This document shows, one piece after another, positions 6,959 to 48,778 of a DNA stretch of 58,351 nt. The DNA is taken from IMG/VR virus record IMGVR_UViG_3300026196_000002, positions 1 to 58,351 of that record; one strand, written 5' to 3'. Position numbers and translations under genes: made by a program. Below the pieces are notes generated by a model. That model made no database searches, was not told the origin of the DNA, and worked only from the letters and a program-made list of their open reading frames with translations. Origin of the DNA: a virus. Taxonomy: Duplodnaviria > Caudoviricetes. Positions within the stretch are counted from its first letter, which is position 1, and the number at the start of each line of letters is the position of its first letter.

Positions 6959-7300
6959 ATGAGTTTTGAATATTACGGGCCTAGCATGGCCATAGAGGAA
7001 GAAATCAGGCCTTTTGATCTTCACTGTCCACTGATGGGCGGAGGGCTAAACTTTTACAAGGAAAAATGCTTGGCAAGGCAAAGGAACCCACAGGATTCAA
7101 CATGCTATGGTGGGTGTCGAGGAATCAGGGTTAATAGCATGGCAAAAAAGAATAAACTAAATGGGGCGAAAAAAACCGGAAACAGGGCCGCAGCTATGCT
7201 CATGCTGAAGCACAATGTCCCAGTTTCAGAAATCGCCAAAGCCCTGAATGTCAGCAAGGCAACCGTTTATAAATACAAAGGAGGGAGAAATGGCAAATAA
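6959..7300 (+). CDS. Cys-rich protein with C-terminal HTH
   Basis: VPVSEIAKALNVSKATVYKY. Confidence 0.65.
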   Translation: MSFEYYGPSMAIEEEIRPFDLHCPLMGGGLNFYKEKCLARQRNPQDSTCYGGCRGIRVNSMAKKNKLNGAKKTGNRAAAMLMLKHNVPVSEIAKALNVSKATVYKYKGGRNGK

Positions 7301-7751
7301 GTGGATCGGCGTTGGAAATTTAACCAAAGACCCAGATATTAGGTATACACCCCAAGGAGCTGCAGTAACAACATTTTCAATCGCCTGCAATGAGCGGTTT
7401 AAAGATCGGGATGGGAACAAAAAAGAGAAAACTGAATATATCAACATTGTCGCCTGGCGGCAGCTGGCGGAAATCTGCGGGAAGTATCTGCACAAGGGGA
7501 AACAAGTTTATATCGAGGGGAAGATCCAGACCAGTTCCTACGATGATCGCGACGGGAACAAGCGCTATATCACCGAAATCGTTGCTGACCAGATGGAGAT
7601 GCTGGGGGGGCGCGATGATCGCCAGCAGGCGCAGGGTGCCAGCGGCGGGCAGCAGGGGCAGGGCGGCGGTGGTTGTCAGGAACCGGTTTTCAACCCGGAT
7701 GATGAGATACCGTTTTTTCTCCCACATGAGCGACGTGAGGTTAAGTGTTGA
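7290..7751 (+). CDS. ssb: Single-stranded DNA-binding protein
   Basis: NKWIGVGNLTKDPDIRYTP...GKQVYIEGKIQT...DDEIPF. Confidence 0.95.
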   Translation: MANKWIGVGNLTKDPDIRYTPQGAAVTTFSIACNERFKDRDGNKKEKTEYINIVAWRQLAEICGKYLHKGKQVYIEGKIQTSSYDDRDGNKRYITEIVADQMEMLGGRDDRQQAQGASGGQQGQGGGGCQEPVFNPDDEIPFFLPHERREVKC

Positions 7752-7781
7752 GCACATCGAAGGAGTGAAGGCCCTTATCTG

Positions 7782-8192
7782 ATGAAAAAACACCGTATCA
7801 TCATAAGAAGCGATTGGCATAGGGAAAGGGCAGCATCTTTGGCGCGGTCCGCTCCCGAAGGATTTGAGGTCGTCATTCAGAAACATAGGGAGAATAAAAC
7901 TATCCCCCAACTGGGCTACACCTTCGGGATCATTTACCCGACCATTATCGGATTTATCGAAGATAGCCATGGAGATACATTCTCTGTTGAGGAGATCCAC
8001 AAATACATGAAAAGGCAGATTCTTGGAGTGGAACACAAAGAAATTGACGGCGACATTATCGAGGTCGAGATAGAACTGAAGAAGTCAGATAAGGATGCCT
8101 GGTCGGGGTATATCGACCGTCTTGTCGCATATTGCTGGAACCGGTGGGGGTTGCAAATCCCTGCGCCGCACTGGAAAGAGGACCCCGCATGA
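7782..8192 (+). CDS. NinB-like protein
   Basis: Size, position and loose pattern match to NinB/Orf. Confidence 0.5.
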   Translation: MKKHRIIIRSDWHRERAASLARSAPEGFEVVIQKHRENKTIPQLGYTFGIIYPTIIGFIEDSHGDTFSVEEIHKYMKRQILGVEHKEIDGDIIEVEIELKKSDKDAWSGYIDRLVAYCWNRWGLQIPAPHWKEDPA

Positions 8193-8497
8193 TATTCCCA
8201 AAGCCGAAACGCTGGAAGAGCAAAAAATACCGGGATGCCGCCAGGGATCAGAATTGCAAGCTCCGCCTGCCAGGGTGCATGAACAATACCGAAACGGTTG
8301 TCCTCGCCCATCGCGGCGGCGCAGGAATGGCGATAAAGGCCTGCGACCACAACGCGGTTGACGCCTGTTTCCATTGTCATTCAATCCTTGACAGGCCGGA
8401 TTACTGGCCATGGCCAAAGAAGGAAATGGAGAGTCGGTTCAATCGCGGGCGCCTGGAAACCCTCATTGACCGGATCGAGCGGGGGATTTTAAAATGA
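8189..8497 (+). CDS. DUF1364-like Zn-binding putative nuclease
   Basis: ARDQNCKLRLPGC...ETVVLAH...ACFHCH. Confidence 0.75.
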   Translation: MIFPKPKRWKSKKYRDAARDQNCKLRLPGCMNNTETVVLAHRGGAGMAIKACDHNAVDACFHCHSILDRPDYWPWPKKEMESRFNRGRLETLIDRIERGILK

Positions 8498-8934
8498 GTT
8501 ATGAAATTTGCCCGGTGGGGAAGATTTACAACAGGACCCATGCCACATGCCGGACCTGCACAATTAAATGCACTGGGAAGGGCGCGGCACAGCCACACCG
8601 GGCAAAAAAAAGCAAATACGGCAATCGCAAGGTCGTCGTTGACGACGTTCTGTTTGATTCTAAGCGCGAAGCGTCGCGCTATCAAAAATTAAAGTTGATG
8701 GGGCTGGCTGGGGAGATCTCTGGATTGCGGTTGCAGGTAAGGTTCGAACTTGCCCCGGCTGTTGTTATTAACGGAAGAAAGAAGCCGGCACTTCGTTATT
8801 ATGCAGATTTTGTTTATCTCGACAAATCCGGTGGTGTGGTTGTCGAGGATGCAAAAGGGCATCGTGATGGGATCTATAAAATTAAGCGGCACCTTATGAA
8901 GTCGGTCCACGGTATTGATATTCTGGAAACCTGA
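8494..8934 (+). CDS. DUF1064-family PD-(D/E)xK endonuclease
   Basis: SKYGNRKVVVD...FDSKREA...YYADFVY...VVEDAKG. Confidence 0.85.
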   Translation: MSYEICPVGKIYNRTHATCRTCTIKCTGKGAAQPHRAKKSKYGNRKVVVDDVLFDSKREASRYQKLKLMGLAGEISGLRLQVRFELAPAVVINGRKKPALRYYADFVYLDKSGGVVVEDAKGHRDGIYKIKRHLMKSVHGIDILET

Positions 8935-8984
8935 CCAGTGTGTTCAGTCTGCTGATGTCCGTGGTTATACGCAAGGAGTTTCGT

Positions 8985-9188
8985 ATGAAAATAGAACAAG
9001 AAAACCCACTTTATAAACCGATAACTATCACGCTTGAAGAATGGCATGAAGCAAAAGCATTGTTCGGAATTATTGATAAGGCTGAGGTGTGGAGATGCAA
9101 CGCAGAAAACCCAAAATTTACCCACGACGAAATTAAAATGTTAATAGACTTATCAGACGCACTGACCAACCAAGTTGTAAGCGTATAA
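8985..9188 (+). CDS. Cassette ORF, hypothetical
   Basis: RBS AAGGAG; stop codon within the GTATAAC core. Confidence 0.75.
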   Translation: MKIEQENPLYKPITITLEEWHEAKALFGIIDKAEVWRCNAENPKFTHDEIKMLIDLSDALTNQVVSV

Positions 9189-9318
9189 CTGACTTAGATC
9201 AGCTGCGGCGACGTGAAGTTAAGTTTATTACCGCATTAATCGGATAAAACAGACGTATGTTCCGTCCGCTTGATGCACTGGTTAGGTTCTTATCACAACT
9301 TTTTGAAAGGGAGTAATC

Positions 9319-9525
9319 ATGGCAGCAGAAGCTATTTATATTGTTTGGTGCCCGACCGGAGATACCCCACCAATTATCCGCCACCAGTCAGTTGACGAAG
9401 CACGAAGGGCGGCAAGGGATATGTGCCAAAATCACCCACACAAGGAATTTTTTGTGATGAGGGCTGTTGAGTCTGTGCAATACAGAACAGACCCTTTTGT
9501 TTGCAAGAGCTACTGTAAGCGTTAA
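9319..9525 (+). CDS. Cassette ORF, hypothetical phage protein
   Basis: RBS GGGAG; bounded by GTTAGGTTCTT and AAGAACCTAAC. Confidence 0.75.
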   Translation: MAAEAIYIVWCPTGDTPPIIRHQSVDEARRAARDMCQNHPHKEFFVMRAVESVQYRTDPFVCKSYCKR

Positions 9526-9642
9526 GAACCTAACATTACAAATAACTGGTGGCGACGAGCCGACCGAGCATTTAGCGAACAGGGTGTTCCATCCACGTTG
9601 ATTTGCTGGTTAGTTTGCGCTGCTGAGAAGAGGAGAACGACG

Positions 9643-9804
9643 ATGGCAAAAGGTGAAATGGATAAACAGCCCTGCAAAACCTGCGGAAAAGAAACGAACC
9701 AAGTCTTTAATATTGGATTCAAGGCTGTGCCCATTTGTAATTCGTGTGCGAACACGATAGCTATGCAGCAGTTGGGATGGTTGATTGAACACCAAGCAAC
9801 CTAA
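9643..9804 (+). CDS. Cassette ORF, Zn-finger (two CxxC)
   Basis: CKTC...CNSC; RBS AGGAG. Confidence 0.7.
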   Translation: MAKGEMDKQPCKTCGKETNQVFNIGFKAVPICNSCANTIAMQQLGWLIEHQAT

Positions 9805-9839
9805 CGTTACTGATAACCAGGGGCGACGAGGAGGACGTA

Positions 9840-10127
9840 ATGACTGACGAAATGGACTGTAACAGTTGCGTAGTGACTGATTTGGAAGATCAAGAGTGCG
9901 ACGTGTGCCATGCAGAGCAAGTGCGTGAACCCGCACAGGAACACCCCTCTGCGTTAATTGGCTTGTTAGCACGCGCTCTTTGCAAGGCGGACACCCTTGG
10001 ATATGAGCGCGGTTTCACTGACGCAGACCCTACGGCTGGAAACACCGATGATGCGTTAATGGAGGTGGTTGAAATGACATGGAAAGAATGGATAGAGGAC
10101 GCCGAGCAAGTTTTACGTGCGTGCTAA
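9840..10127 (+). CDS. Cassette ORF starting inside the attC loop
   Basis: RBS GAGGAGG inside site 9799-9971; two CxxC. Confidence 0.7.
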   Translation: MTDEMDCNSCVVTDLEDQECDVCHAEQVREPAQEHPSALIGLLARALCKADTLGYERGFTDADPTAGNTDDALMEVVEMTWKEWIEDAEQVLRAC

Positions 10128-10237
10128 CGTTGGAATAAGCGCGTGGCGGGTAATAGCTGGCGACAGGGTTTGATCCTGTGAACCACACCACTATTTCCAT
10201 CCGCTTCATGTACATGGTTAGCCAAGGAGTAGACATT

Positions 10238-10495
10238 ATGAAAAAGGGATATTTAATTTTAGCAAGAGCTCCGCTGCTACCAATACATGCGGTATGTGAG
10301 TTTATTTTATTGCTGGCAACCTTAATACTGCTGCCGTTTATTTGGATGTCTGGGCGGCTTATAGATATTGCCGAAAAGATGCCAGACATGAGTTGGTACA
10401 AGGGGGCTGAGTACCACAACTTAAAGGCGAGGATAAACGCGAAAATTAAAAAACGCCTGAAAGAGAAAGAAGCTCGTTTGCCGAAGGCTGACTAA
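10238..10495 (+). CDS. Cassette ORF, membrane protein
   Basis: RBS AAGGAG; hydrophobic segment. Confidence 0.7.
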   Translation: MKKGYLILARAPLLPIHAVCEFILLLATLILLPFIWMSGRLIDIAEKMPDMSWYKGAEYHNLKARINAKIKKRLKEKEARLPKAD

Positions 10496-10526
10496 CTATT
10501 GAGATAACCGGATTGTGGAGGAAGAG

Positions 10527-10778
10527 ATGGCATTTTGCAAACACAATGGCGGTGGACCGAAGACGTGCCCGGCATGTCGTCGCGAGGGTAGCAATTCCGC
10601 GTTGATTGACGGGTTAGCCGCCGAACAGATCAAAAAGGGGATAAGCGAGATTCTTCATGCCGCCCTGAGTGGAATAGACGAAACCCTGCGACATGAGAAA
10701 AGTTATATACGATGGGGGCTGGTCGAGAAAAGGATACATGAGAAAGTGGATGAACTGCTGAATGTTCATGGCGGCTAA
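10527..10778 (+). CDS. Cassette ORF starting inside the attC loop
   Basis: RBS GGAGG in the attC arm; CKH...CPAC. Confidence 0.7.
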   Translation: MAFCKHNGGGPKTCPACRREGSNSALIDGLAAEQIKKGISEILHAALSGIDETLRHEKSYIRWGLVEKRIHEKVDELLNVHGG

Positions 10779-10880
10779 CGAAATTAATAAGCGGCGGCGG
10801 CTCAATGGTGGGCCGCGTAGCGGCGCGGACAGGTTCACCGTCCGCTTGATTTAAGGGTTGTACGGCAGAGGAGGTGGAAA

Positions 10881-11039
10881 ATGGCATGCCCTGGATGTGG
10901 TTGTAAGGTGACTTACCAGCACGACTGTATGGACGACGACTACAATAGCGAAGGTGAAGAGTACGAACGGTGCGCAGCCTGCGGCTTTGTTTTTGATATT
11001 GAACTGGCCGCAGATGATGACGACGCCGAAAATTTTTAG
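10881..11039 (+). CDS. Cassette ORF, 52-aa acidic Zn-finger
   Basis: Manual translation MACPGCGCK...RCAACGF...; RBS GAGGAGG. Confidence 0.75.
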   Translation: MACPGCGCKVTYQHDCMDDDYNSEGEEYERCAACGFVFDIELAADDDDAENF

Positions 11040-11091
11040 CCGTACAACGCCCCAGTAAGCGGCTACGACGAAATGACGGAGGATTGACGCA

Positions 11092-11388
11092 ATGGAATGT
11101 ACACACCCAGAACCAAGGGCCTATTGTAAGCACGATGACGGATGCAACGACTGCGGCAAGTTTGGTTTAGCAGAGCCGGTTCCTAGTCCGCTTGACGATA
11201 TGGTTAGCCTGCAAGCAGTTCGAGCGTGCATCGAATATCTTTTAAATGGATTTGAGAGCCGAGAAGATGTCACACCACGAAAAATTTGTTTAGAGGCACT
11301 GCAAAGAAATGGGATACCGCTTGACGTTAAGTACAGCACCTTAGCAGAACGAACCAAAAGATACACTGTGAGCGTGGAAGGCAGATAA
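11092..11388 (+). CDS. Cassette ORF starting inside the attC loop
   Basis: Cys-rich N-terminus encoded in site 11042-11209. Confidence 0.65.
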   Translation: MECTHPEPRAYCKHDDGCNDCGKFGLAEPVPSPLDDMVSLQAVRACIEYLLNGFESREDVTPRKICLEALQRNGIPLDVKYSTLAERTKRYTVSVEGR

Positions 11389-11534
11389 ATTTTTCAGTAG
11401 GCTAACGCCCACGCATGAGCTGCGGCGACGAACTGCCGACCCGCGCCAGCGGAGTACCCCGCTATGTTCCGTCCGCTCGATGCGATTGTTAGATACGCTC
11501 TTCAATTTATTTTTATTTTATTTTACTTTTTCTG

Positions 11535-11563
11535 TTGACATGTGTCCCCATTGGGAATATAGT
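11535..11563 (+). promoter_or_regulatory. Strong sigma70 promoter inside a cassette, with a palindrome in the spacer
   Basis: TTGACA-17 bp-TATAGT; AT-rich upstream tract; TCCC..TGGGA dyad in the spacer. Confidence 0.85.
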
Positions 11564-11604
11564 TAAATAACAAACAAGGAACACTAACCCAACGGAGGCA
11601 CATC

Positions 11605-11925
11605 ATGGAAACAACATTAATCGTATCGTCCGGCCAGTACGAAACATCAGCTGTAAAGCTAGCTGTCAATCATAAGACGTGGGGCGGCCTCTGTCGCCGA
11701 ATTACCCAACTTGAAAATCAGTATGCTGTTTATGGTGACAATTTCGCGGGCTGGCTAAAAGCAAGTGTTTCGCTGGCGGACAGCCGCGACGAGTGGGGGG
11801 ATAATCAAATCATCGGGGGCCAGTGGTGCCAGCCCTATAACGGATGGCTGTCAGTGGAAGAAATCGATGGTCCGTTTATGTCCTACGATGATCTCCATAA
11901 AAAACTTTATGGGTGCAACCGATGA
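11605..11925 (+). CDS. Cassette ORF, hypothetical, with its own promoter
   Basis: RBS GGAGG; 106 aa. Confidence 0.8.
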   Translation: METTLIVSSGQYETSAVKLAVNHKTWGGLCRRITQLENQYAVYGDNFAGWLKASVSLADSRDEWGDNQIIGGQWCQPYNGWLSVEEIDGPFMSYDDLHKKLYGCNR

Positions 11926-12101
11926 CACCCGCCGAATTAATGGAGGACCGGCAAACGCTGGGCCTCAATATTACGCAGATGGCAGCCCGCCTGAACACGC
12001 CGCGTGGAACCTATTTGAAATGGGAGCGCGGTGAACGACGGGTGCCACCATGTTTGGATGTGCTGATACCGTTGGTGATAGAAAAAGACGGGAGTATCTA
12101 A
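11922..12101 (+). CDS. Small XRE-type HTH protein
   Basis: RQTLGLNITQMAARLNTPRGTYLKWERGER; ATGA overlap with the upstream ORF. Confidence 0.85.
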   Translation: MTPAELMEDRQTLGLNITQMAARLNTPRGTYLKWERGERRVPPCLDVLIPLVIEKDGSI

Positions 12102-12222
12102 CGGTGGTGATAAGCGGTGGATTGCTACCGCTTGCATACAAACGAATTAATCAAACTAGCAGCATGTAACAACCATCCGCTTGATTAGGTTGTTATAATG
12201 CGCTGTTTCGCAGGGGGCGGGA

Positions 12223-12405
12223 ATGGATGCAAAAGAGACTAGCAGATTGATAGGTGCCGCGTATAAGCGAGGCATTGAGGATATCTGCGACACAATGGCT
12301 GAATCTGTCCGAATTATTGCAGAAGGCTTGCCGGGAGTAACCTTCACAACACAAGACTTAATAGCCTTTATAGAGAAGGCCAAAAATGAGGGCCTAGCAT
12401 TATAA
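12223..12405 (+). CDS. Cassette ORF, hypothetical
   Basis: Fills the cassette; stop codon in the core site. Confidence 0.7.
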   Translation: MDAKETSRLIGAAYKRGIEDICDTMAESVRIIAEGLPGVTFTTQDLIAFIEKAKNEGLAL

Positions 12406-12535
12406 CAGTGATGATAACCAGTTGCCGTAGACAGGTGGATTGACCGCCGAGCAGTTATAGGGAGAACACGCGCCGCTCCTTGCAATCTGCGTTGATTTTT
12501 TGGTTAGTTTGCGCTGCTGAGAAGAGGAGATAACA

Positions 12536-12742
12536 ATGTTTAAACATGATGATAACTGTCCTGTTTGCGTAAAACACCCAATAGACGAGGTGCAATGCCA
12601 ATGTAAAGACCAATTTTATAGGGAAAAATTGGCGCTGGAATATTGTAACCAATACAACATAAACGATGATTCACCAGAAAGGGATGCAATAATAAACGCG
12701 TTTATAGTTGGGATAACTATTGGAGAAAAACGAGCAAACTAA
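12536..12742 (+). CDS. Cassette ORF, Cys-containing hypothetical
   Basis: RBS AGGAG; stop codon in the core site. Confidence 0.7.
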   Translation: MFKHDDNCPVCVKHPIDEVQCQCKDQFYREKLALEYCNQYNINDDSPERDAIINAFIVGITIGEKRAN

Positions 12743-12838
12743 CGGTAAAGCTAAGCGGCGGCGACGCGAGGCTTAAATAAAAACACCAGACGGATAACCC
12801 GTCCGACTTTAGCACCTTGTTAGGCGTGGGAGAATGAA

Positions 12839-13003
12839 ATGCAAATATTGGAACTTGTAAAACTGCTGAACCAGCAGGCAAACGAGATAGCGTCTGCTGG
12901 GCATAATGGCTGGGGAAATACAATGCGAGATGCTGCCGACAAACTTGAGGAGTTGCAAGAGCGTATTTACCAACTAGAGAATCAATGTGCTAATGGTGCC
13001 TAA
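12839..13003 (+). CDS. Cassette ORF, 54-aa coiled-coil
   Basis: Manual translation MQILELVKLLNQQANEIASAGHNGWGNTMRDAADKLEELQ...; stop codon in the core site. Confidence 0.7.
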   Translation: MQILELVKLLNQQANEIASAGHNGWGNTMRDAADKLEELQERIYQLENQCANGA

Positions 13004-13049
13004 CGGTAGTGATAAGCGGCGGATTGCCGCCAGAAGGGATACCACCGCA

Positions 13050-13322
13050 ATGGGCAGAAAAGAGCCAACACCTCCGCCAGAAAATGCCGTGAAGCCTTCG
13101 CCACCACCAGCACCACCTGTTCGGCAAAATTCGGCTGCTTGTTCCCGTCCGGTTGATTTGATGGTTATACGCAAAACCTTGGAGCGCGAAATTGCTTCTA
13201 AGCAAAAATCCGTTGATAGACTGCACCGAAAGGGTGCATTGGAGGCCGCTGCAAGGGAGGACGCTGTACGCGAAGGGCTAGCGTGGGGGCTATTCGTGCT
13301 GTCCCAAAAGTGCAGCGTATAA
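13050..13322 (+). CDS. Cassette ORF with Pro-rich N-terminus encoded in the attC
   Basis: MGRKEPTPPP...SRPVDLMVIR; start position uncertain. Confidence 0.55.
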   Translation: MGRKEPTPPPENAVKPSPPPAPPVRQNSAACSRPVDLMVIRKTLEREIASKQKSVDRLHRKGALEAAAREDAVREGLAWGLFVLSQKCSV

Positions 13323-13451
13323 CGACCTGCATAACAGGTGGCGACGTGCCGATGAAACTATTGACGCAATCAAAGCGGTTTTCGGGGAGCACAGACCTAT
13401 TTTCCATCCGCGTTGATGCACTGGTTAGCCCATACCAGAAAGGATCGCACG

Positions 13452-13646
13452 ATGTACGATAGAGATTTTTTAATTTGGCTACATGAGCGCATGGAGCATG
13501 TACACCAAGAAAGCCATTTAGTAGATTACATGCACAAGTTACGAGCGATAATTAAAAGGACCCCGCCAAAGCAAATGACACCGAATGCCATGGGCAAAAA
13601 CAACCTTGAAGAGCTGAAAGAGGAACTAGGCATCTTAAAGGGCTAA
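13452..13646 (+). CDS. Cassette ORF, hypothetical phage protein
   Basis: DRDFLIWLHERM...DYMHKLRAII. Confidence 0.75.
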   Translation: MYDRDFLIWLHERMEHVHQESHLVDYMHKLRAIIKRTPPKQMTPNAMGKNNLEELKEELGILKG

Positions 13647-13784
13647 CGCTTGCGGATAACCGGTGGCGCTGCTAACTGACAACCTTTACCGCAATTTAGA
13701 TTTTGCTTTTTGTAAACCACAGAGGCCCATTCCATCCGCGTTAATTAGCTTGTTATGTGGCCTGTTTCGGAATAGGGGACTGAT

Positions 13785-13970
13785 ATGAAAATAGTTATTG
13801 AACACGATACAGACGAAAAACAATACGGACGTGTGTTGGTGCAGACAAAGCATGGTGGACGATCTGATGTTAGCAATGGGGACTATGTTGAATTAACGCC
13901 TGAATTATTAGATGCGATTCAAAAAGCACAGGTTGAAATGGACAGGGTGAGTAGACTTTTGAAAGTTTAG
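13785..13970 (+). CDS. Cassette ORF, hypothetical
   Basis: RBS AGGGG; fills the cassette. Confidence 0.7.
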   Translation: MKIVIEHDTDEKQYGRVLVQTKHGGRSDVSNGDYVELTPELLDAIQKAQVEMDRVSRLLKV

Positions 13971-14102
13971 ATGCCACATAACAGTACTGATAAGCTGCGG
14001 CGACGCACCCTTTGCGGGCCACCGAGCTTATCGTAAACCACGGCGCTATTCCCCGTCAGCTTGATTATTTTGTTATATTTTAATTTTACACGGAGCAAGT
14101 TT

Positions 14103-14309
14103 ATGAAAAAACAAAGACCTATTTTTATTGAATACTCATGGGTTGACCCGTGGGACGGCAGTTTTTGTGCTGGAGGGAGTTGCCCATATTTAAAAGGAAG
14201 AATGCTACGCGGTGTATACCGCAAAGAAATTCTTGCTGCGAAGAAACTTGCAAGGGGATGGACCGGGCCCAGAACCCCAAGACTGCAGGTATTAGTCCAT
14301 AAAATATAA
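14103..14309 (+). CDS. Cassette ORF, basic hypothetical
   Basis: RBS GGAG; stop codon in the core site. Confidence 0.65.
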   Translation: MKKQRPIFIEYSWVDPWDGSFCAGGSCPYLKGRMLRGVYRKEILAAKKLARGWTGPRTPRLQVLVHKI

Positions 14310-14409
14310 CGCCCATGTTAAGCGGTGGCGGATGGACGGTGACTAAGAAGCAGACGCCTTGTTCCATCCGCTTGAACTAATTGTTAGCCCAAACCACAGG
14401 AGATCAAAA

Positions 14410-14580
14410 ATGATACAGATTGAACAGGTGGCAAATGGTTTTGTGGTGACTTCTGGCATAATGCACCGCGGAGAGTGCCGCAGCAATGATGACACGTACG
14501 TTTTTCAAACAATGGAAAATCTCCAAAAGTGGATTGATCAACATTTTAGCCCCGTGCAAAAGACCGCGAGGCAAGATTAA
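14410..14580 (+). CDS. Cassette ORF, hypothetical
   Basis: RBS AGGAG; IEQVANGFVV motif. Confidence 0.75.
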   Translation: MIQIEQVANGFVVTSGIMHRGECRSNDDTYVFQTMENLQKWIDQHFSPVQKTARQD

Positions 14581-14701
14581 GGGCTAACGTCAATGGTAAC
14601 CGGAGGCGACGAACCGGCTCGGCTACCTACGCAATTTTGATTTTCAATTTTGCACAGACGTATATTCATTCCGGTTCACTCAATTGTTAGCGAGGCGCTT
14701 T

Positions 14702-14926
14702 ATGGACTACCTAGGGATTTGGCTTCTTGTGCTGGTAGCGTTTGCCGGTGGGTGGGGATGGGGGCAATGGCAAGCAGAAAGAACAATGCGGCAAGAAAAG
14801 TCGCTGAACGAAAAAGGACGAGTGGTTGTTTCTATGCCAATGCGTGAAGACAACGCTTCTCAAATGATGGGGATGCTACAGGATTTAATAAAGCAGGCCG
14901 AAGAAACCAACGCCGAGCCACGCTAA
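14702..14926 (+). CDS. Cassette ORF with N-terminal transmembrane segment
   Basis: RBS GAGG; hydrophobic N-terminus. Confidence 0.7.
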   Translation: MDYLGIWLLVLVAFAGGWGWGQWQAERTMRQEKSLNEKGRVVVSMPMREDNASQMMGMLQDLIKQAEETNAEPR

Positions 14927-15051
14927 CAGTACTGATAAGCTGCGGCAGCGCACCCCTTGCGAACCGCCGCGCTTATCGTAAACCACAGCGCCATTTTTCC
15001 GTCAGCTTGATTTGATGGTTCAACGCCTACGCTACCAAGGGAGATAAAATT

Positions 15052-15240
15052 ATGGCAAACAGGAAAAGGTATACAAAGGTGACGCGGAATGAGGCGTGCT
15101 GTATTTTCGACGAAGACGGGCTGCTTGGAGAAATCGAAATTTTCCTCGAAGCTGAAGAGCCTGGCGACAAAATCACCCTCGAAATTGTTTCCATGACTGA
15201 GGATGAGTACGCCTCTTTGCCAGAATTCACTGGTTGGTAG
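15052..15240 (+). CDS. Cassette ORF, acidic
   Basis: RBS GGGAG; C-terminus similar to 48207..48389. Confidence 0.75.
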   Translation: MANRKRYTKVTRNEACCIFDEDGLLGEIEIFLEAEEPGDKITLEIVSMTEDEYASLPEFTGW

Positions 15241-15375
15241 GCGAGCGTTGAACGATTGGAATAAGCGGTGGAGCAGCTACCAGAGAGAACCTACGCAATT
15301 GCTCTTGCTTTTTGAGAACCGGCGCGGATCGGACATCCGCTTGATTTTGTGGTTATGCGTAACCACAGGAGGTTG

Positions 15376-15573
15376 ATGATGGGGATTATACGATTAACGC
15401 CGCAGTTACGGTACATCGAAACCGATGAGAATATGTCGAGTTTATCGCCGTGCACGCATCTACCCGGATACCCTGAAAATGGCAGCACGTTTTTCAAATT
15501 ACAGCAGGCGTGGGAAGATATTGAAGACGGAAGTTTGCATTGGAAAGACGTAGAAATTGATTATAGCGCATAA
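15376..15573 (+). CDS. Cassette ORF, hypothetical
   Basis: RBS AGGAGG; KLQQAW...WKDV motif. Confidence 0.75.
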   Translation: MMGIIRLTPQLRYIETDENMSSLSPCTHLPGYPENGSTFFKLQQAWEDIEDGSLHWKDVEIDYSA

Positions 15574-15701
15574 CGGTGCTGTTAAGCGGGTACGACGCGA
15601 CCTGTGAGACGCACCGAACAATTATCTTTGAAATCAGCAGCAGCCAATTTTACTCCGCTTGAACTTTTGGTTGTGCTGCAAACACTTTGAGCGAGGCAAA
15701 A

Positions 15702-15896
15702 ATGAACCCGATTGTAAAAGGTAGGTTTATATCAAACAAATGCCCAGATCCAAATTGTGATGGTGTTTTGCAACACAGACAGAACAAATATGGAGAAAAC
15801 CGCTGGGAATGTGACGGCCTTGTTGACCCAAATGATATTACAAAAGAGCTGCAACCCTGCCTTGTGGACGTGGTAGACGGGGAGTTACGTTTATAG
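15702..15896 (+). CDS. Cassette ORF, Zn-ribbon-like
   Basis: CPDPNCDG...WECDG...PC. Confidence 0.7.
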   Translation: MNPIVKGRFISNKCPDPNCDGVLQHRQNKYGENRWECDGLVDPNDITKELQPCLVDVVDGELRL

Positions 15897-16011
15897 CAGC
15901 ACAACGGTGAAGATAAGCGGCGGCGATGTGCCGTAACCTATGGAAAACAAAGCTATTTTCCGTCCGCCTTCATTTTATTGTTATAATTCGTACTTTATTT
16001 GCTGATTTCCC

Positions 16012-16039
16012 TTGACAACGTAACTAGTTATGGTAATAT
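16012..16039 (+). promoter_or_regulatory. Sigma70 promoter inside a cassette, with palindromic operator TAACTAGTTA
   Basis: TTGACA-16 bp-TAATAT with extended -10 TG; perfect 10-bp palindrome at 16021-16030. Confidence 0.75.
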
Positions 16040-16066
16040 CTAAGTAACTTAACAAAGGAGGCAGCC

Positions 16067-16258
16067 ATGAAGCAAAAAACTTGGATTAAGTATTCTGTGA
16101 AATCAATGATGGGTGAAGTTGTCAACGGTGAGATAAACCTGAATTGGGCGTTTGATGCTGACTTGGTGAACAATTTCGACAAGACCATGCGCTACCTTGA
16201 GCGGGACGCCGGTTGTTATATCAAGGAAGTTCTCGAATTTGAGTCGGGGACAAAATGA
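16067..16258 (+). CDS. Cassette ORF, hypothetical, with its own promoter
   Basis: RBS AAGGAGG. Confidence 0.8.
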   Translation: MKQKTWIKYSVKSMMGEVVNGEINLNWAFDADLVNNFDKTMRYLERDAGCYIKEVLEFESGTK

Positions 16259-16410
16259 CCAAACTTGATGACCTTCTGGAAGGGCTAACCGAGGCCGAAT
16301 TGAAAACACTACGTGCCAAGATAAACGGGAAGATCGGAAAGCGTAGTATATCGCCAGAGGCACAGGCCAAGATGCAGGAAGCGCGCAAGAAAAAGCACCA
16401 AGAATTATAA
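16255..16410 (+). CDS. 51-aa basic protein, possible DNA-binding autoregulator
   Basis: Manual translation MTKLDDLLEGLTEAELKTLRAKINGKIGKRSISPEAQAKMQEARKKKHQEL; ATGA overlap. Confidence 0.7.
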   Translation: MTKLDDLLEGLTEAELKTLRAKINGKIGKRSISPEAQAKMQEARKKKHQEL

Positions 16411-16539
16411 CATTTGGAATAACCGGTGGCCGTAGAAACCTGCGTGAGCCACCACTATTTTGCACTTAAATTTACAACCGCAGCCAGTTGCCATCCGCGT
16501 TGATGTCCCTGGTTATGTGGCCTGCTGAATGGAGGGAAA

Positions 16540-16710
16540 ATGCCAGATTTTGAGAGAGTGTTGGACGAACTGAGTATTGACCTAGCGCAGACAGATGCAG
16601 ATAGGCAGTATGCAAAAGGATATATAGCCGGTAAAAACCGGGCGCGGTTTGAAATACTTGGAGTGGTGGTTGTGCTGTATTTTGTAATAGCACTAATCGG
16701 TAAACTTTAA
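16540..16710 (+). CDS. Cassette ORF, 56 aa with C-terminal transmembrane segment
   Basis: Manual translation; RBS GGAGG. Confidence 0.7.
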   Translation: MPDFERVLDELSIDLAQTDADRQYAKGYIAGKNRARFEILGVVVVLYFVIALIGKL

Positions 16711-16841
16711 GCCACATAACAGTACTGATAAGCTGCGGCGGCGCACCTTTTGCGCACCACCGAGCTTATCGTAATTTGCAGCGCCATTTTCCGTCAGCTT
16801 GATTTGATGGTTGGCTGGCGCTGGTTCCTACGGAGAGAATA

Positions 16842-17033
16842 ATGAGCAAGAAAGAGCGACGGAACTACACCATTACCGCCGAACGTTCTGACCACGGCAA
16901 GTCGTCAGTTGACATCAAGTGTCCATTTTGTGGCTCGATCACAACCGCTTACCTTTGGTCCCTGGCCGGCAGTGGGAAAAAATGTGAATGTGGGGCAAAG
17001 CATACATATCTGAACGGGACAATTGCGGCATAG
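16842..17033 (+). CDS. Cassette ORF, Zn-finger
   Basis: CPFCG...WSLAGSGKKCECGAKH. Confidence 0.75.
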   Translation: MSKKERRNYTITAERSDHGKSSVDIKCPFCGSITTAYLWSLAGSGKKCECGAKHTYLNGTIAA

Positions 17034-17160
17034 CCAGCCAACAGTGAAGATAACTGGTTACGACGCGAACCAGGCGAACCACCGAGTTTTTCGAGAACCG
17101 CATCTTTATTTTAATCCAGTTCATTTTTTGGTTAGTTTGCGAACCTTGAAAGGGCAACCG

Positions 17161-17343
17161 ATGATTACTAAAACTACAATTTCAAACTTTATAAAAAAGA
17201 TCGATAAAAAGCAGATAAAAATCGGAAAAGAGCGAGACTCTTTAGACGACCTGATTTCTGATATGGCACAACTGCGCGAGGACTGCAGCGAAGCATGGGA
17301 CAATTTGCAGGACGCAAGAGACGCGCTGAGCCGTATGCAGTAA
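17161..17343 (+). CDS. Cassette ORF, coiled-coil
   Basis: Fills the cassette. Confidence 0.7.
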   Translation: MITKTTISNFIKKIDKKQIKIGKERDSLDDLISDMAQLREDCSEAWDNLQDARDALSRMQ

Positions 17344-17461
17344 AGCAAACTAACGTTCGAGTAAGCGGCAGCGGAAAACTGCCAAAATAAGAACCACACA
17401 GCTATTTTCTGTCCGCTTGACGTAGCTTGTTAGGCGTTACCACTACCGATGGAGCGTGGGA

Positions 17462-17647
17462 ATGATTGCTGATCTGAAACAACCGGCAAAATACTGGCTG
17501 GCTGATCACCTGAATAACTTTGGAGTATTACTCGAAAAAGGAGAAGACCCAAGTTGCCTGATTACCTACGGTGGTGTAGAGATCGAGATTAGGCTGAATA
17601 AGGTGCCAGGAGTCTTCGAGCGTAAAGAAATTTCACTTAGCGCCTAA
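17462..17647 (+). CDS. Cassette ORF, hypothetical
   Basis: RBS GGAG; stop codon in the core site. Confidence 0.7.
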   Translation: MIADLKQPAKYWLADHLNNFGVLLEKGEDPSCLITYGGVEIEIRLNKVPGVFERKEISLSA

Positions 17648-17675
17648 CGACCTGATAACCGGATTTGTGGAGGAT

Positions 17676-17972
17676 ATGATGGAAAAGTTTGTTGATGCGT
17701 TGCCAGAAGGTGAGCGTGAGCTACGTAAGTTTTTTGCAGAGACGGAAACAAATTCCGCGTTGATTGACTTGTTGTGCCCAGCCCGGATCGAGATAACCAC
17801 CGACCACATAGCCGAGAAATTGGATGAAATGGCCGACATTGCAGAATACTGGAGAAAGAACAGAGATAAAAAACGTATGCCAGGTGCGATACGTGCCGCA
17901 ATGCTGATGCTGGCCGAAGAATTGACCATGCTTAACAAAGTAAATGAAATTCCTAGACAGGAGTGCGGCTAG
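17676..17972 (+). CDS. Cassette ORF starting inside the attC loop
   Basis: RBS GGAGG in the attC arm; NSALIDLLC is encoded by the other arm. Confidence 0.7.
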   Translation: MMEKFVDALPEGERELRKFFAETETNSALIDLLCPARIEITTDHIAEKLDEMADIAEYWRKNRDKKRMPGAIRAAMLMLAEELTMLNKVNEIPRQECG

Positions 17973-18137
17973 TTATTTTAAGGGCACAACGCCCTGATAA
18001 CTGCGTTTGCGGGAAAGTACGTAGACATTATTCGGACAGGGGCGCAAAACGAGAAACCTAGACCGATTAAATTTGCAGAGCTGAAAGCAAATCCACGTTG
18101 ATTACGCTTGTTAGCCTGCCGAGAGAGGTAGCTAATC

Positions 18138-18329
18138 ATGAAAGTTTCGGAATTGATGGAACGGCTTGGAAAATACAACCCTGACGCTGATGTGGATGTT
18201 GTAGCCAATAACAAGGGCCACGAGTTCTCTTTTGCGTACGGCAATAGCGAAGGCTGCACCATAGAAAATTGTGAGACTGTTAGTTTGTGGGTAGACAGCT
18301 TAAATGACGGTGGCGAGTCAGCAGGCTAA
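18138..18329 (+). CDS. Cassette ORF, hypothetical phage protein
   Basis: MKVSELMERLGKYNPDADV-type N-terminus. Confidence 0.75.
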   Translation: MKVSELMERLGKYNPDADVDVVANNKGHEFSFAYGNSEGCTIENCETVSLWVDSLNDGGESAG

Positions 18330-18451
18330 CGGCTTGGTCAGCGGATGCGACGCAATGCTTGTGAACCACTGACCTCTTCAAAAATTTGCAGAAGTATTTT
18401 CATTCCGCTGCACTGAATGGTTGTGCGGCAAACAGCCAGAGCGAGGTAGAA

Positions 18452-18652
18452 ATGTTTGCATATCATTATTTTGCAGAGTTTAAGTGTGCGGCAGGCACAG
18501 CCAGGATGGATGGGGTAATCACGAGCGACAAAAAGATAGTAGATTACGACGGATACACAGCGATGAAGCGAGAAATCACAAAAGGGACAGACATTGAGGG
18601 TATGCCAGAGAAGCTATCTGTTTGCTCGTTGCAGCTACTTCATAAATTTTAG
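18452..18652 (+). CDS. Cassette ORF, hypothetical
   Basis: RBS GAGG. Confidence 0.7.
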   Translation: MFAYHYFAEFKCAAGTARMDGVITSDKKIVDYDGYTAMKREITKGTDIEGMPEKLSVCSLQLLHKF

Positions 18653-18705
18653 CCGCACAACGCCATAGTAACCGGCTACCCACTGAAAGAAAGGAACGCT
18701 GCGCA

Positions 18706-18984
18706 ATGAAATGCGACAAACACGATTGCTGGCTTGATGAAGAACCAAATAACCCAAGTGCGCTGTACTGCCCATTGTGCGAGGCAGAGCGGGACGTTAG
18801 TCCGGTTGACGAACTTGTTAGACCGCAGGCGCATATTGCAAGCGATTGCTCTGCAGAACACTTTGAGCGCGTGTTTAACTGGCAGAAACAAAATTTTACC
18901 TGCGCTAAATGTGGGACTGGACGCAGTGTGAAATATAAGAAGGGTGGAAAGCCGTACTGCAATATGTGTGTTCTAGCGGGCTAA
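18706..18984 (+). CDS. Cassette ORF, multiple Zn-finger motifs, starting inside the attC loop
   Basis: CDKH, CPLC, CAKC, CNMC. Confidence 0.7.
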   Translation: MKCDKHDCWLDEEPNNPSALYCPLCEAERDVSPVDELVRPQAHIASDCSAEHFERVFNWQKQNFTCAKCGTGRSVKYKKGGKPYCNMCVLAG

Positions 18985-19105
18985 CGAGGGAGTTGAGCGC
19001 TGCGGCGGTAGCGCACTGGCGAACCACCGCAATTTTGCTCTTGTAAATTTGCAGAATATTTTTCCGTCCGCTCGAACGTTTGGTTAGATTTACGGAGGCT
19101 ATAGA

Positions 19106-19315
19106 ATGGCAAGCGCGTATAGAGATGTTGATATTCGTGGACTTAGAAAGGCGCATTTTAACCAACTGCGAAACTATGTGCACAGTAGAGATGAGGAAGG
19201 CTGGTACTACGGCAACAAGGAGCAGTTTGAAAAGAGGCACGAAGACCTGAAACAATGGATTGATTCTGTTTGCGATCTATTTAACCAGAGTGATGTTGTT
19301 ATTGAGAAGAAGTAA
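19106..19315 (+). CDS. Cassette ORF, hypothetical
   Basis: RBS GGAGG; GWYYGNKEQFEKRH motif. Confidence 0.75.
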   Translation: MASAYRDVDIRGLRKAHFNQLRNYVHSRDEEGWYYGNKEQFEKRHEDLKQWIDSVCDLFNQSDVVIEKK

Positions 19316-19434
19316 ATCTAACGGTGAAGATAAGCGGCGGGGATTGACTGCCGACCCGCGAAGCGGCAACGCACAGCTAACCCCGTCCGACTTGATTATT
19401 TGGTTCTATTTCTAACCTGAAACGGAGAACGATT

Positions 19435-19617
19435 ATGGAAGTTTACAGACCGGACCGCCGCTGTGAAATTACCGGAATGCCACTTGACACATCTTCTATG
19501 GGTTTTTGGTCTTCGCCATTTAAAAAGGCTAAACGTGGCGGTACAAAAAGGACTGCTAAACAAAAAGAAAAGCAAAAGATGCAAAAGGCTAGCAGGCGTA
19601 AAAACCAGAAGAAATAG
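19435..19617 (+). CDS. Cassette ORF, highly basic
   Basis: KMQKASRRKN C-terminus. Confidence 0.7.
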   Translation: MEVYRPDRRCEITGMPLDTSSMGFWSSPFKKAKRGGTKRTAKQKEKQKMQKASRRKNQKK

Positions 19618-19759
19618 AACGTGAGTTATTAACCGGCGACAACGAGACTTAACAACTTACAGCGCAATTTAGATTTTTCTTTTCGGACAAAAACAGAAGC
19701 CGATTTCGTCCGGTTGAATTATTTGTTAGTTTGCGCTGTTACAAAAGAGGGAGGACGAT

Positions 19760-19942
19760 ATGCAATTGACACTACAGGAAGTTATGGATATTTGCCCTAG
19801 TTGGGATGATTTCTGCGAGTTAAAGGGCTTCAGCCCTTATGCAGTAAATGAGGGAGGTGGACACGTTGAGGTGAGCTTGACGCTTGAGGAAGCCTGCAAT
19901 TTGAAGATGGTAAAAAGCTGGAAGTACCCACAAGAAAACTAA
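19760..19942 (+). CDS. Cassette ORF next to the attI-like site
   Basis: RBS GGAGG; stop codon in AACTAAC. Confidence 0.75.
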   Translation: MQLTLQEVMDICPSWDDFCELKGFSPYAVNEGGGHVEVSLTLEEACNLKMVKSWKYPQEN

Positions 19943-19955
19943 CCAGCATTAGGCG
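19937..19955 (-). other. Candidate attI-like primary insertion site of array 1
   Basis: Minus strand reads CGCCTAAT-GCTG-GTTAGTT; core site with no attC hairpin; same motif as 48186-48204. Confidence 0.6.
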
Positions 19956-19997
19956 TACCATCCAAGGTGGTGGGGCAAAATGCCGCAGGAGGGGCGT

Positions 19998-48098: not shown

Positions 48099-48185
48099 AC
48101 CATTCCTTTCTGTGGGGCATTATGCCCCACACCTAATACCAATTAAACCAAATGGCTTATAAACCGTTTATAGGTCTATAGAGCC

Positions 48186-48204
48186 CGCCTAATCCCTGTT
48201 GTAC
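48186..48204 (+). other. Candidate attI-like primary insertion site of array 2
   Basis: CGCCTAAT-CCCT-GTTGTAC; no attC hairpin; matches the array 1 end motif. Confidence 0.6.
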
Positions 48205-48206: not shown

Positions 48207-48389
48207 CTACACTTCTGGAAGCGCTGCCATTTCCTCATCGGTCATGTCGAACCTCTTGAACCGCAGCGTTATTTCCTCTCCCTCATCCATGCTATCCTCT
48301 GTGCAAATAAGTTCCCCATCAACATTAACCGGCACTGGTATCCATGAGTCGTGCCCTTCTTCCCAATAAAACAATCTCGCCTTTTTCAT
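48207..48389 (-). CDS. Cassette ORF, acidic
   Basis: MKKARLFYWEEG...MTDEEMAALPEV. Confidence 0.75.
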   Translation of the reverse strand: MKKARLFYWEEGHDSWIPVPVNVDGELICTEDSMDEGEEITLRFKRFDMTDEEMAALPEV

Positions 48390-48495
48390 CTGTATTCCCC
48401 TTTCGTAGGTAAGCCGTACAACCAGCAAATCAAGCGGATGAAAATACTGGTGTGGTTTCTATTCAGCGGTCATCCGTCACCGCTTATCATGGGCG

Positions 48496-48645: not shown

Positions 48646-48778
48646 ATCCACCTCTGCCGCATAACCAGTAAATCAACCGGACGGGAATTAGCTTCTGTTC
48701 TTAGGCTGTTCAACTCGGTGGTCCTCCATCGTCGGCAATCCGCCGGTTATCGCCATCCGTTAGCCAGCCTTCGGCAAA

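Follow-up and report, generated by a model that had tools for sequence, protein, structure and literature searches.

Probable integron-type cassette arrays of largely inverted polarity in a complete tailed-phage genome without an integron integrase

Integrons are bacterial devices whose gene cassettes include antibiotic-resistance and anti-phage defence genes, and where these cassettes come from is an old open question. Here we describe two arrays of small gene cassettes separated by attC-type sites in IMG/VR record IMGVR_UViG_3300026196_000002. The window (the whole stretch of DNA analysed) is the entire record, a 58,351-bp contig with direct terminal repeats that is classed as a virus genome and has a completeness rating of 100%. 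We consider it probable that both arrays are genuine integron-type cassette arrays, i.e., clusters of attC sites lacking integron integrases (CALINs), in a complete tailed phage that encodes no integrase.

A first-pass annotation, made from the letters of the window alone, had raised the possibility that attC clusters in a phage are new, but they are already in print. Excerpts of Qi et al. 2023 (PMC9892861) report CALINs in virulent phages, 17 of them in 10,705 phage genomes and each with at least two sites, along with a few integrons in temperate phages. The same excerpts draw the CALIN of Tetrasphaera phage TJE1 with three attC sites and describe an IntI1 assay in which five of six phage sites recombined, TJE1 attC1 and attC2 being among the six. 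A survey of 71 Acinetobacter phages found no attC clusters (PMC13676570). Beyond these, full-text searches turned up nothing on attC clusters in phages. TJE1 resembles the window phage in having attC-type sites between small open reading frames (ORFs) and no integron integrase. However, it has three sites and four ORFs in the bacterial polarity, whereas the 41 cassettes of the window phage come with 39 sites and some degenerate ones, in two arrays and with inverted polarity.

Sedentary chromosomal integrons, e.g., those of Rhodanobacter lycopersici (locus L095), Vibrio, Stenotrophomonas and Caldilineaceae, are also similar: they are long arrays of small, mostly unknown ORFs with attC sites resembling those of the phage in between, and some of their cassettes likewise hold two genes and a promoter-like sequence. 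In Rhodanobacter, the likeness to the phage sites extends to the sequence of the arms and to the bulged T. The differences are that chromosomal integrons have intI, attI and top-strand ORFs, whereas the window phage has no intI and its array-1 ORFs are on the bottom strand, and that several of the phage attC loops hold the start of the next ORF. In the R. lycopersici locus (3299-9469), the attC sites are 57 nt long and loops are nearly absent.

The stem-loop cassettes of T4-type phages, for which homologous exchange is proposed, are a third point of comparison. In excerpts of two papers (PMC2839356, PMC4122927), recurring intergenic stem-loops (PeSLs) flank small variable genes of the phage hyperplastic regions, modular shuffling is proposed, and the titles present PeSLs as promoter-terminator motifs. 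The sites in the window differ in that they show no promoter or terminator enrichment and carry both attC hallmarks and a box complementarity that is specific to each cassette.

Array 1 is 10,980 bp long and makes up 18.8% of the genome, close to the 19% first estimated. The early annotation recognised this array and missed array 2 (48198-51059), which lies on the minus strand downstream of the replication genes and runs from 51059 to 48198. Together, the arrays hold 41 cassettes and take up 23.7% of the genome. Reading positions 8800-20300, we found the same order after nearly every small plus-strand ORF: a box ending in AAC, a spacer of 5–7 nt, a left arm, a variable loop, a right arm, a spacer of 6 nt and a box starting with GTT. 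The 33 units and 32 imperfect palindromes of about 85–175 bp that had been claimed for array 1 are borne out as 33 GTT...AAC units and 32 sites, imperfect palindromes of 86–173 nt when measured from R box to R box (n=32). So are the two units with two ORFs each (11488-12102 and 15980-16411). Across both arrays (32 and 7 sites), attC spacing is 160–615 bp.

The ends of each cassette belong together. A cassette's own start and end form a perfect inverted repeat of 9 bp on average (range 5–12), compared with 3.97 bp for two boxes that belong to the same site and 4.19 bp over all non-own pairings, and the sum for own ends was reached by 0/10000 random re-pairings. The claim that the cores bounding each cassette are complementary and differ between cassettes is therefore correct. 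The window as a whole contains 53 perfect GTT...AAC pairs with k of at least 8, against 7–19 in 20 shuffles, and 28 of the 53 tile head to tail across 8964-19943. Cassette-specific R-box complementarity of this kind is the signature of site-specific exchange at a conserved triplet. A screen for complementary boxes within a site failed, because a site's two boxes belong to different cassettes. A gapless inverted-repeat finder missed the sites because their arms carry bulges, and Rfam at its gathering thresholds gave no match in the window.

The sites also share a fold. We aligned all 39 of them (32 + 7; alignment A1) and modelled 16 base pairs, 11 of them in an inner helix and the others joining the outer boxes. 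Pairing holds in 90.2% of cells (78.5% in shuffles) and in 93.3% for the inner helix, while 74 cells show double changes (22.2 in shuffles) and 10 of the 16 pairs have changed on both sides. None of 500 shuffles reached the covariation score, and sliding the partner by 1–3 columns loses the signal (27–49% paired). The AAC and GTT triplets are present in 39/39 aligned sites. A bulged T (38/38 sites) and a bulged G (31/39) sit on the 3' arm of the gene strand, at positions matching those in bacterial sites aligned to the model. The unpaired spacer between box and helix is 7 nt in 27/39 sites and, on the other side, 6 nt in 36/39, and loops are 28–122 nt long. In attC sites generally, the extrahelical bases are a T and a G. 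Excerpts of one paper (PMC8946536) give the features of the attC bottom strand as an unpaired central spacer, extrahelical bases and a variable terminal structure, and describe attC recombination as selective for that strand.

We built two covariance models to assess attC membership: R1 from the 39 phage sites and R2 from 47 attC sites (alignment A3) of ten bacterial integron loci. R2 is a stand-in for the standard attC covariance model, and its 47 training sites had been picked by R1. In the window, R1 finds 38/39 sites and nothing else, the non-array part included, and never on the wrong strand. In 80 bacterial loci (972 kb) that had been fetched with an IntI protein from a phage contig (L081), the IntI gene being the sole criterion, R1 gives 93 matches, with 93/93 on the intI strand and 93/93 upstream of intI. 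The hosts include Rhodanobacter, Stenotrophomonas, Vibrio, Caldilineaceae and many uncultured Gammaproteobacteria, and the best-scoring bacterial sites are in Rhodanobacter and other Xanthomonadales-like loci. In 53 viral IntI loci, R1 finds 58 sites, 58/58 of them on the intI strand and upstream of intI. The controls gave one match in 886 kb of TerL-related phage loci (80 loci) and eight in 649 kb of resolvase-gene-related loci, all within 2 of 44 loci. In the other direction, R2 finds 35/39 phage sites, each on the gene strand and with its ends placed exactly. Its single stray match has E 0.75, and in TJE1 it finds exactly three sites. Covariation, bulges and this cross-recognition by R1 and R2 therefore support the phage sites as attC-type by structure and sequence, and the early claim that they are integron cassette sites holds up, on surrogate models.

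Polarity is where the window phage departs from bacteria. R1 and R2 both describe the strand shared with intI, which is the attC bottom strand, since bacterial cassette genes read away from intI. When the ORFs are scored by a codon model from the phage structural genes, the best one lies on the model strand in 33/33 array-1 cassettes, and all 35 array-1 ORFs begin with ATG, most of them behind a Shine-Dalgarno-like stretch. As a bacterial control, we took 42 cassettes from seven arrays, and the longest ORF was opposite to the model strand in 39. TJE1 also has the bacterial polarity, with its three sites on the minus strand and orf1-orf4 on the plus strand. Array 2 has 7/9 ORFs on the model strand, while the other two (50519-50824 and 50108-50392) have bacterial polarity. 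An ORF on the top strand with its attC downstream occurs in 0/33 cassettes of array 1. Array-1 genes are thus on the attC bottom strand, inverted relative to bacterial integrons and TJE1. The site at 14304-14389 reads on the minus strand exactly as first quoted, and the minus strand does carry the R''...R' order; however, that strand is the attC top strand and the genes are on the plus strand, so the cassettes are inverted, which the early reading had not brought out.

This has consequences for what would move. Excerpts of PMC9892861 place the top-strand cut at G|TT. Since the bottom strand is the coding strand here, the expected cut position is AA|C in the left box. The mobile unit, as read from the sequence, would be 'C, attC, ORF, ...AA', so that an attC travels with the ORF downstream of itself. 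By coordinate comparison, a TAA stop forms the last three bases in 19/33 units. Six ORFs (those starting at 9840, 10527, 11092, 13050, 17679 and 18706) have their start in the loop of the site before them and continue across that site's right arm. A cut at the right box would split all six while a cut at the left box keeps them whole, an internal check that favours the bottom-strand assignment. The ORF starts in loops also explain the six longest sites apart from S27.

Replication may matter as well. The likely replication origin is a set of iterons at 52400-52461 inside the O-like initiator gene, and an origin with repeats inside the initiator gene is a lambda-like layout. Assuming bidirectional replication from 52.4 kb on a circularised genome, we infer that both arrays have their bottom strand on the lagging-strand template. 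The G-rich strand is consistent with this but is confounded by transcription direction. Excerpts of PMC8946536 report that the lagging-strand template favours attC folding and excision and that large chromosomal arrays mostly keep their bottom strand on the leading-strand template, so the window phage would differ from chromosomal arrays in this respect too. Polarity should likewise affect expression: the cassette promoter at a bacterial attI would read an inverted phage cassette in antisense, and phage transcription would do the same to a bacterial cassette in a phage array.

Similar arrays occur in other viruses. Four other viral records (85–97% complete, 36–77 kb) have 4–9 tandem sites each. 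Of the 24 internal cassettes in these records, 21 have their longest ORF on the model strand and 23 have terminal repeats of their own of at least 8 bp. Another phage locus (L188) has six sites, with 4/5 cassettes in the inverted sense. Among the arrays compared in this analysis, the window has by far the most cassettes. By tblastx, G001-G003 are not close relatives of the window, while G004 shares no more than an SSB gene and one 48-residue match inside S9. The comparison with related phages that had been proposed thus turned up other viral arrays but no close relative, so cassette order could not be compared. The closest TerL relative (L001, 56% identity) has one attC-type site (3140-3226, 43.5 bits), which is the only match in the TerL loci; its early region is otherwise made up of tightly packed small genes without hairpins.

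Some of these viruses carry an integrase. In G002 (= L267, 97% complete), a decayed intI (10001-10714) comes right after a nine-site inverted array; it aligns to residues 110-361 at 50.6% identity and has stop codons upstream. In a 6-kb contig reached via a pattern scan of viral contigs (L081, also G005), an R1 site of 53.2 bits adjoins an integron integrase that scores 410 bits against TIGR02249 (cut-off 265). This contig is a phage fragment: a gene for a gpA-type terminase large subunit and one for a lambda-type portal adjoin intI, all in the same orientation (421-5954). In the attI-proximal cassette, the ORF lies on the intI strand and the repeat is 10 bp long. Searching the viral collection with a profile built from ten IntI proteins gave 334 relatives. 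Nine of the loci kept from these (L226-L234) encode an IntI 62–66% identical to that of L081, with a TerL homologue downstream on the same strand in 9/9 and a short conserved stretch running into the intI start codon. Upstream sequence was read for L226, L228, L231 and L234; in each, the last cassette ORF is on the intI strand, and in L226, L231 and L234 that cassette has its own terminal repeat of 9–10 bp. Together with L081, this makes ten contigs with intI directly upstream of terL, and most have a lambda-type portal downstream.

From this gene order, there seems to be a phage-type architecture of 'cassettes -> intI -> terL -> portal' in one reading direction. L081 and L226-L234 are like the window phage in attC type, in having ORFs on the intI strand, in cassettes with their own terminal repeats and in their location just upstream of packaging genes, as in array 1. 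They differ in that they encode the integrase and the conserved pre-intI stretch, both of which are absent from the window (by eye, the stretch was not seen at the window's two array ends), and the window's terminase is of another family. Other viral IntI loci show inverted polarity as well: G002 (7/9), L255 (3/3) and L263/L269 (2/3). Bacterial polarity was found in L237 (16/17), L235 and L266, which may be bacterial or prophage-flank DNA.

The mechanism that we propose starts with an IntI-type tyrosine recombinase, which would have inserted circular cassettes by cutting at the conserved triplet and so left complementary R-box halves on each cassette. IntI acting in trans could then excise, reinsert and swap [attC-ORF] units during infection, both between the two arrays and between co-infecting genomes. 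The enzyme might be that of a host integron or, more likely, that of an L081-like phage, with intI upstream of terL, residing in the same cell. Accessory early genes of the window phage would thereby form a library that can be reshuffled, and the arrays would be read through from upstream phage promoters.

Several results weigh against this account. A six-frame search of the whole genome with PF00589 gave no match at E<=10, and tblastn of two IntI proteins against the genome reached a best E of 0.19, with no integrase remnant. Both arrays therefore have at least two neighbouring attC sites on a replicon that, searched in full, lacks intI: they are CALINs and not an integron. The degenerate 7-mer consensus RYYYAAC/GTTRRRY is fully matched by only 7 and 8 of the 39 boxes (32 and 34 at no more than one mismatch). 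S27, B4, B7 and the first sites of both arrays are decayed. Searching the 972 kb from bacterial integron loci yields no relative for any of the 44 cassette proteins (0/44), and so no sign of exchange with bacterial arrays. In a second study's run (X2), the phage is present at >=99% identity with its cassettes in the same order as in the window at the junctions covered. No junction that would indicate excision, a circle or reordering was found in three public runs (X1, X2 and X3), which exist as contigs only and could not be expected to show one. Lastly, two sites of array 2 are near-copies of sites in array 1 (B3 of S16 and B5 of S1) and yet have unrelated ORFs on both sides, so simple cassette duplication fails as an explanation; these pairs suggest some homologous exchange or conversion between sites, which the SSB, NinB-like mediator, nuclease and resolvase encoded upstream of array 1 could promote.

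The near-copies and decayed sites lead to a different explanation: that an integrase made the sites once and they are now fixed, serving as hairpins in polycistronic early mRNA (for processing, stability or attenuation) and as portable homology for recombination enzymes of the phage, with any shuffling today being homologous, as has been proposed for PeSL cassettes. The gene complement fits, since the phage encodes an SSB, a NinB/Orf-like mediator, an HNH/YbcO nuclease and a Holliday-junction resolvase immediately upstream of array 1 and no integrase, and coding on the bottom strand puts the hairpins into every mRNA. However, a role in RNA or homology leaves unexplained the bulged T, the bulged G, the spacing and the AAC/GTT triplets, all as in bacterial attC, and also why complementarity follows the cassette and not the hairpin. 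Nor are transcription signals enriched over 5800-21000: promoter-like matches number 22 (19.9 in shuffles) and terminator-like matches 16 (17.7 in shuffles). The two strands show no difference in fold energy, a further point against this explanation. We regard this explanation as unlikely, though it deserves to be kept in mind.

We give very little credence to a further alternative, that an unrecognised phage enzyme other than a tyrosine recombinase recombines the hairpins. It would account for a genome without IntI, nuclease and resolvase genes do abut array 1, and many ORFs belong to no known family. But the sites are indistinguishable in kind from those beside true IntI genes, and related phage arrays adjoin an intI that is either intact (L081) or decayed (G002). 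The flanking nuclease and resolvase families are, moreover, common phage recombination genes, with attC-type sites at only two of the 44 loci searched.

Assembly error is a concern for any metagenomic contig with repeat-rich arrays, and Logan contigs do break at the repeated arms, so a bacterial integron array could in principle have been misjoined into a phage contig. The record nevertheless closes with direct terminal repeats and is rated complete, and its two arrays lie in two operons, each co-oriented with the surrounding phage genes. In X1, three long contigs tile 7501-21500 with zero differences and overlap across the breaks, with depth figures of 22.7–26.3. In X2, identical pieces span several cassette-site junctions, including core gene-array and cassette-cassette joints. 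The codon usage of all 33 best array-1 ORFs fits the phage structural genes, and the polarity is opposite to that of bacterial arrays. A chimera is therefore the least credible of the alternatives, and we treat it as negligible.

The same runs contained candidate excision joints, which we rejected. The joint 9285->14303 lies in a 717-nt contig that fits array 2. Joints of the type 13022->... have sides of only 20–26 letters that belong to other sites of the same family, and the joint 14385->16718 (X3, side 48) is the same two site types around another cassette. All three runs, which are soil metagenomes, contain further contigs in which sites of the same types are joined to other cassettes (13022-13712, 14306, 14385-16718), implying a cassette pool in the samples beyond this phage. 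Among public runs with the sequence, no RNA run was listed.

Returning to the account with IntI in trans, we tentatively extend it to a broader idea, which we would put forward as a real possibility and not as an expectation: that tailed phages run an integron system of their own, with bottom-strand attC-then-ORF cassettes co-directional with intI, terL and portal. Integrases of such phages would act in trans on the window phage, which would be the largest member known to lack an integrase. Under this idea, polarity would separate phage from bacterial cassette expression and lagging-template placement would maximise shuffling. If true, phage cassettes (early genes, probably for host takeover or anti-defence) would be expressed in phages and silent in bacterial integrons, and bacterial cassettes would be the reverse, silent in phages, although the DNA would still be physically exchangeable. 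In that case, phages would represent a large stock of integron cassettes that has gone unrecognised, and might even be where cassettes arise.

The novelty is in size, polarity and architecture, not in the mere presence of attC in a phage. Phage arrays of such size, uniformly inverted polarity, ORFs starting in attC loops and a co-directional intI-terL arrangement were not found in print and appear to be new, with the qualification that the supplementary table of the 17 published CALINs, unread here, may hold a larger phage array. The arrays make it testable whether phages use integron machinery to keep and swap their own accessory genes, given that other phage contigs carry a matching integrase beside packaging genes. 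They also offer natural 'inverted' cassettes for the study of strand choice, replication orientation and expression. Such arrays will escape surveys that assume bacterial polarity or a neighbouring integrase.

The 44 cassette proteins are mostly unfamiliar. Pfam gives seven families, mostly weak (one HTH_3 match and zinc ribbons among them), and PHROGs gives nine matches, mostly without function. The scan does not name the HTH_3 member, but it is probably C9b. Searching 2.62 Mb of fetched loci with tblastn found relatives for one protein only (49513-49728), in other phage arrays. The reversed ORF 50108-50392 found only itself in a set of 5.8 billion proteins; it and the other reversed ORF, 50519-50824, may be imports from bacterial arrays or part of a two-gene module. 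The only strong sigma-70-like matches in array 1 lie inside the two two-gene cassettes and not in sites, and they are the best of the region (11535-11563, 11/12; 16012-16039, 10/12). The layout of these two cassettes is reminiscent of toxin-antitoxin cassettes in chromosomal integrons.

Some loops and array ends have features of their own. Many loops hold a conserved stretch complementary to the site's own left arm, and in the minimum-energy folds of S15 (13976-14078), S18 (14921-15024) and S23 (16714-16816), the left arm pairs with the loop and not with the bulged right arm, a possible alternative hairpin in these predictions. Other loops have a common A/T-rich motif. Both arrays start with a site that is missing its centre, and both end with a lone box, 5 nt and then an identical 7-nt motif (19937-19960 on the plus strand and 48175-48204 on the minus strand). 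Candidate explanations for these end elements are an attI-like site, the scar of a first insertion at a non-att site, or decayed attC halves.

Table 1. Features of the two arrays and their neighbourhood in the window. R1 and R2 columns give bits from the respective models; 'none' marks a site the model did not find. RBS, ribosome-binding site.
Feature	Positions	Strand	R1	R2	Remark
Array 1	8964..19943	+			33 cassettes (GTT...AAC), 32 attC-type sites, 35 ORFs, all ORFs +
Degenerate first site, array 1	8924..8970	+	none	none	found by reading; left box, no left arm, right-arm-like stretch, cassette-1 GTT box
S1, attC-type	9183..9287	+	72.7	27.2	
S2	9528..9615	+	60.2	31.8	
S3	9799..9971	+	60.4	35.5	loop contains RBS and start of ORF 9840-10127
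S4	10122..10223	+	48.6	22.6	
S5	10490..10619	+	41.8	27.9	loop contains start of ORF 10527-10778
S6	10773..10863	+	59.7	35.9	
S7	11042..11209	+	63.6	27.8	loop contains start of ORF 11092-11388
S8	11400..11494	+	53.3	31.4	
S9	12096..12198	+	66	42.3	
S10	12400..12509	+	63.5	none	
S11	12737..12825	+	61.7	43.1	
S12	12998..13170	+	62.7	35	loop contains start of ORF 13050-13322
S13	13317..13430	+	71.5	24	
S14	13641..13758	+	68.7	31.9	
S15	13976..14078	+	85.5	42.7	
S16	14304..14389	+	63.6	52.9	site quoted in first-pass annotation; near-copy of 49085-49170
S17	14582..14692	+	72.5	32.7	
S18	14921..15024	+	78.8	21.6	
S19	15247..15358	+	56.7	25.2	
S20	15568..15676	+	71.3	37.8	
S21	15899..15986	+	69.9	45.3	
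S22	16405..16518	+	55.6	32.3	
S23	16714..16816	+	87.6	33.5	
S24	17036..17137	+	73.1	none	
S25	17348..17435	+	64	44.9	
S26	17642..17777	+	42.6	30	loop contains start of ORF 17679-17972
S27	17984..18116	+	none	none	degraded; boxes and arms readable
S28	18324..18426	+	69.8	28.2	
S29	18655..18823	+	47.8	30.9	loop contains start of ORF 18706-18984
S30	18979..19089	+	61.9	35.8	
S31	19316..19409	+	55.2	27.7	
S32	19614..19731	+	63.7	21.7	
Array-1 end	19937..19960	+			lone left box of cassette 33, left-arm-like stretch, no right arm
C1	8985..9188	+			67 aa
C2	9319..9525	+			68 aa
C3	9643..9804	+			53 aa, CxxC pairs
C4	9840..10127	+			95 aa, starts inside S3
C5	10238..10495	+			85 aa, hydrophobic N-terminal part
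C6	10527..10778	+			83 aa, starts inside S5
C7	10881..11039	+			52 aa, CxxC pairs
C8	11092..11388	+			98 aa, starts inside S7
C9a	11605..11925	+			106 aa; cassette has array's best sigma-70-like match, 11535-11563
C9b	11922..12101	+			59 aa, XRE-type HTH look by eye
C10	12223..12405	+			60 aa
C11	12536..12742	+			68 aa
C12	12839..13003	+			54 aa
C13	13050..13322	+			90 aa, starts inside S12
C14	13452..13646	+			64 aa
C15	13785..13970	+			61 aa
C16	14103..14309	+			68 aa
C17	14410..14580	+			56 aa
C18	14702..14926	+			74 aa, hydrophobic N-terminus
C19	15052..15240	+			62 aa
C20	15376..15573	+			65 aa
C21	15702..15896	+			64 aa, CxxC pairs
C22a	16067..16258	+			63 aa; cassette has sigma-70-like match 16012-16039
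C22b	16255..16410	+			51 aa
C23	16540..16710	+			56 aa
C24	16842..17033	+			63 aa, CxxC pairs
C25	17161..17343	+			60 aa
C26	17462..17647	+			61 aa
C27	17679..17972	+			97 aa, starts inside S26
C28	18138..18329	+			63 aa
C29	18452..18652	+			66 aa
C30	18706..18984	+			92 aa, starts inside S29, CxxC pairs
C31	19106..19315	+			69 aa
C32	19435..19617	+			60 aa, basic C-terminus
C33	19760..19942	+			60 aa
Array 2	48198..51059	genes mostly -			8 cassettes, 7 attC-type sites and one degenerate site; two ORFs reversed
Array-2 end	48175..48204	-			lone left box and motif common to array-1 end
B1	48416..48501	-	69.3	43.4	
B2	48659..48765	-	73.3	40	
B3	49085..49170	-	61	50	near-copy of S16
B4	49441..49517	-	31	none	left arm shortened
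B5	49771..49876	-	76.7	35.7	near-copy of S1
B6	50387..50491	-	84.9	39	
B7	50831..50901	-	37	19.7	right arm shortened
Degenerate first site, array 2	51053..51082	-			boxes and part of right arm only; just past stop of last core gene
Array-2 ORF	50898..51035	-			45 aa
Array-2 reversed ORF	50519..50824	+			101 aa, attC top strand
Array-2 reversed ORF	50108..50392	+			94 aa
Array-2 ORF	49884..50081	-			65 aa, shares cassette back to back with reversed 50108-50392
Array-2 ORF	49513..49728	-			71 aa, relatives in L172/L085 and L174
Array-2 ORF	49165..49416	-			83 aa
Array-2 ORF	48779..49063	-			94 aa
Array-2 ORF	48496..48645	-			49 aa
Array-2 ORF	48207..48389	-			60 aa
SSB	7248-7751	+			directly upstream of array 1
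NinB/Orf-like mediator	7782-8192	+			directly upstream of array 1
HNH/YbcO nuclease	8132-8497	+			directly upstream of array 1
DUF1064 Holliday-junction resolvase	8494-8934	+			directly upstream of array 1; whole block 7248..8934
O-like initiator gene	52008-52832	-			holds iterons
Iterons	52400..52461				5.2 copies of a 12-bp repeat, inside O-like initiator gene

The rest of the genome is that of a tailed phage. Its marker genes encode an SU10-type adaptor, an Amidase_3 lysin and TerL (the relatives of which are annotated as terminase large subunit), while a P22-type portal match is weak and under the Pfam cut-off. Alongside the O-like initiator, the window encodes a DnaC/IstB-like loader, and its G+C is approximately 0.45–0.57 throughout. 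By TerL, the closest cultured phages are Pseudoalteromonas and Vibrio phages at no more than 50% identity, and a megablast of 20000-40000 against phage records found no DNA-level relative in the phage collection. A polyvalent protein of 2801 aa (37199-45604, plus strand) has RadC-like JAB, ADP-ribosyltransferase and LPD38 domains. It is followed, at the end of the structural block, by a TnpB-like gene (45714-46892, plus strand) with a Cas12f1-like TNB domain and OrfB_IS605.

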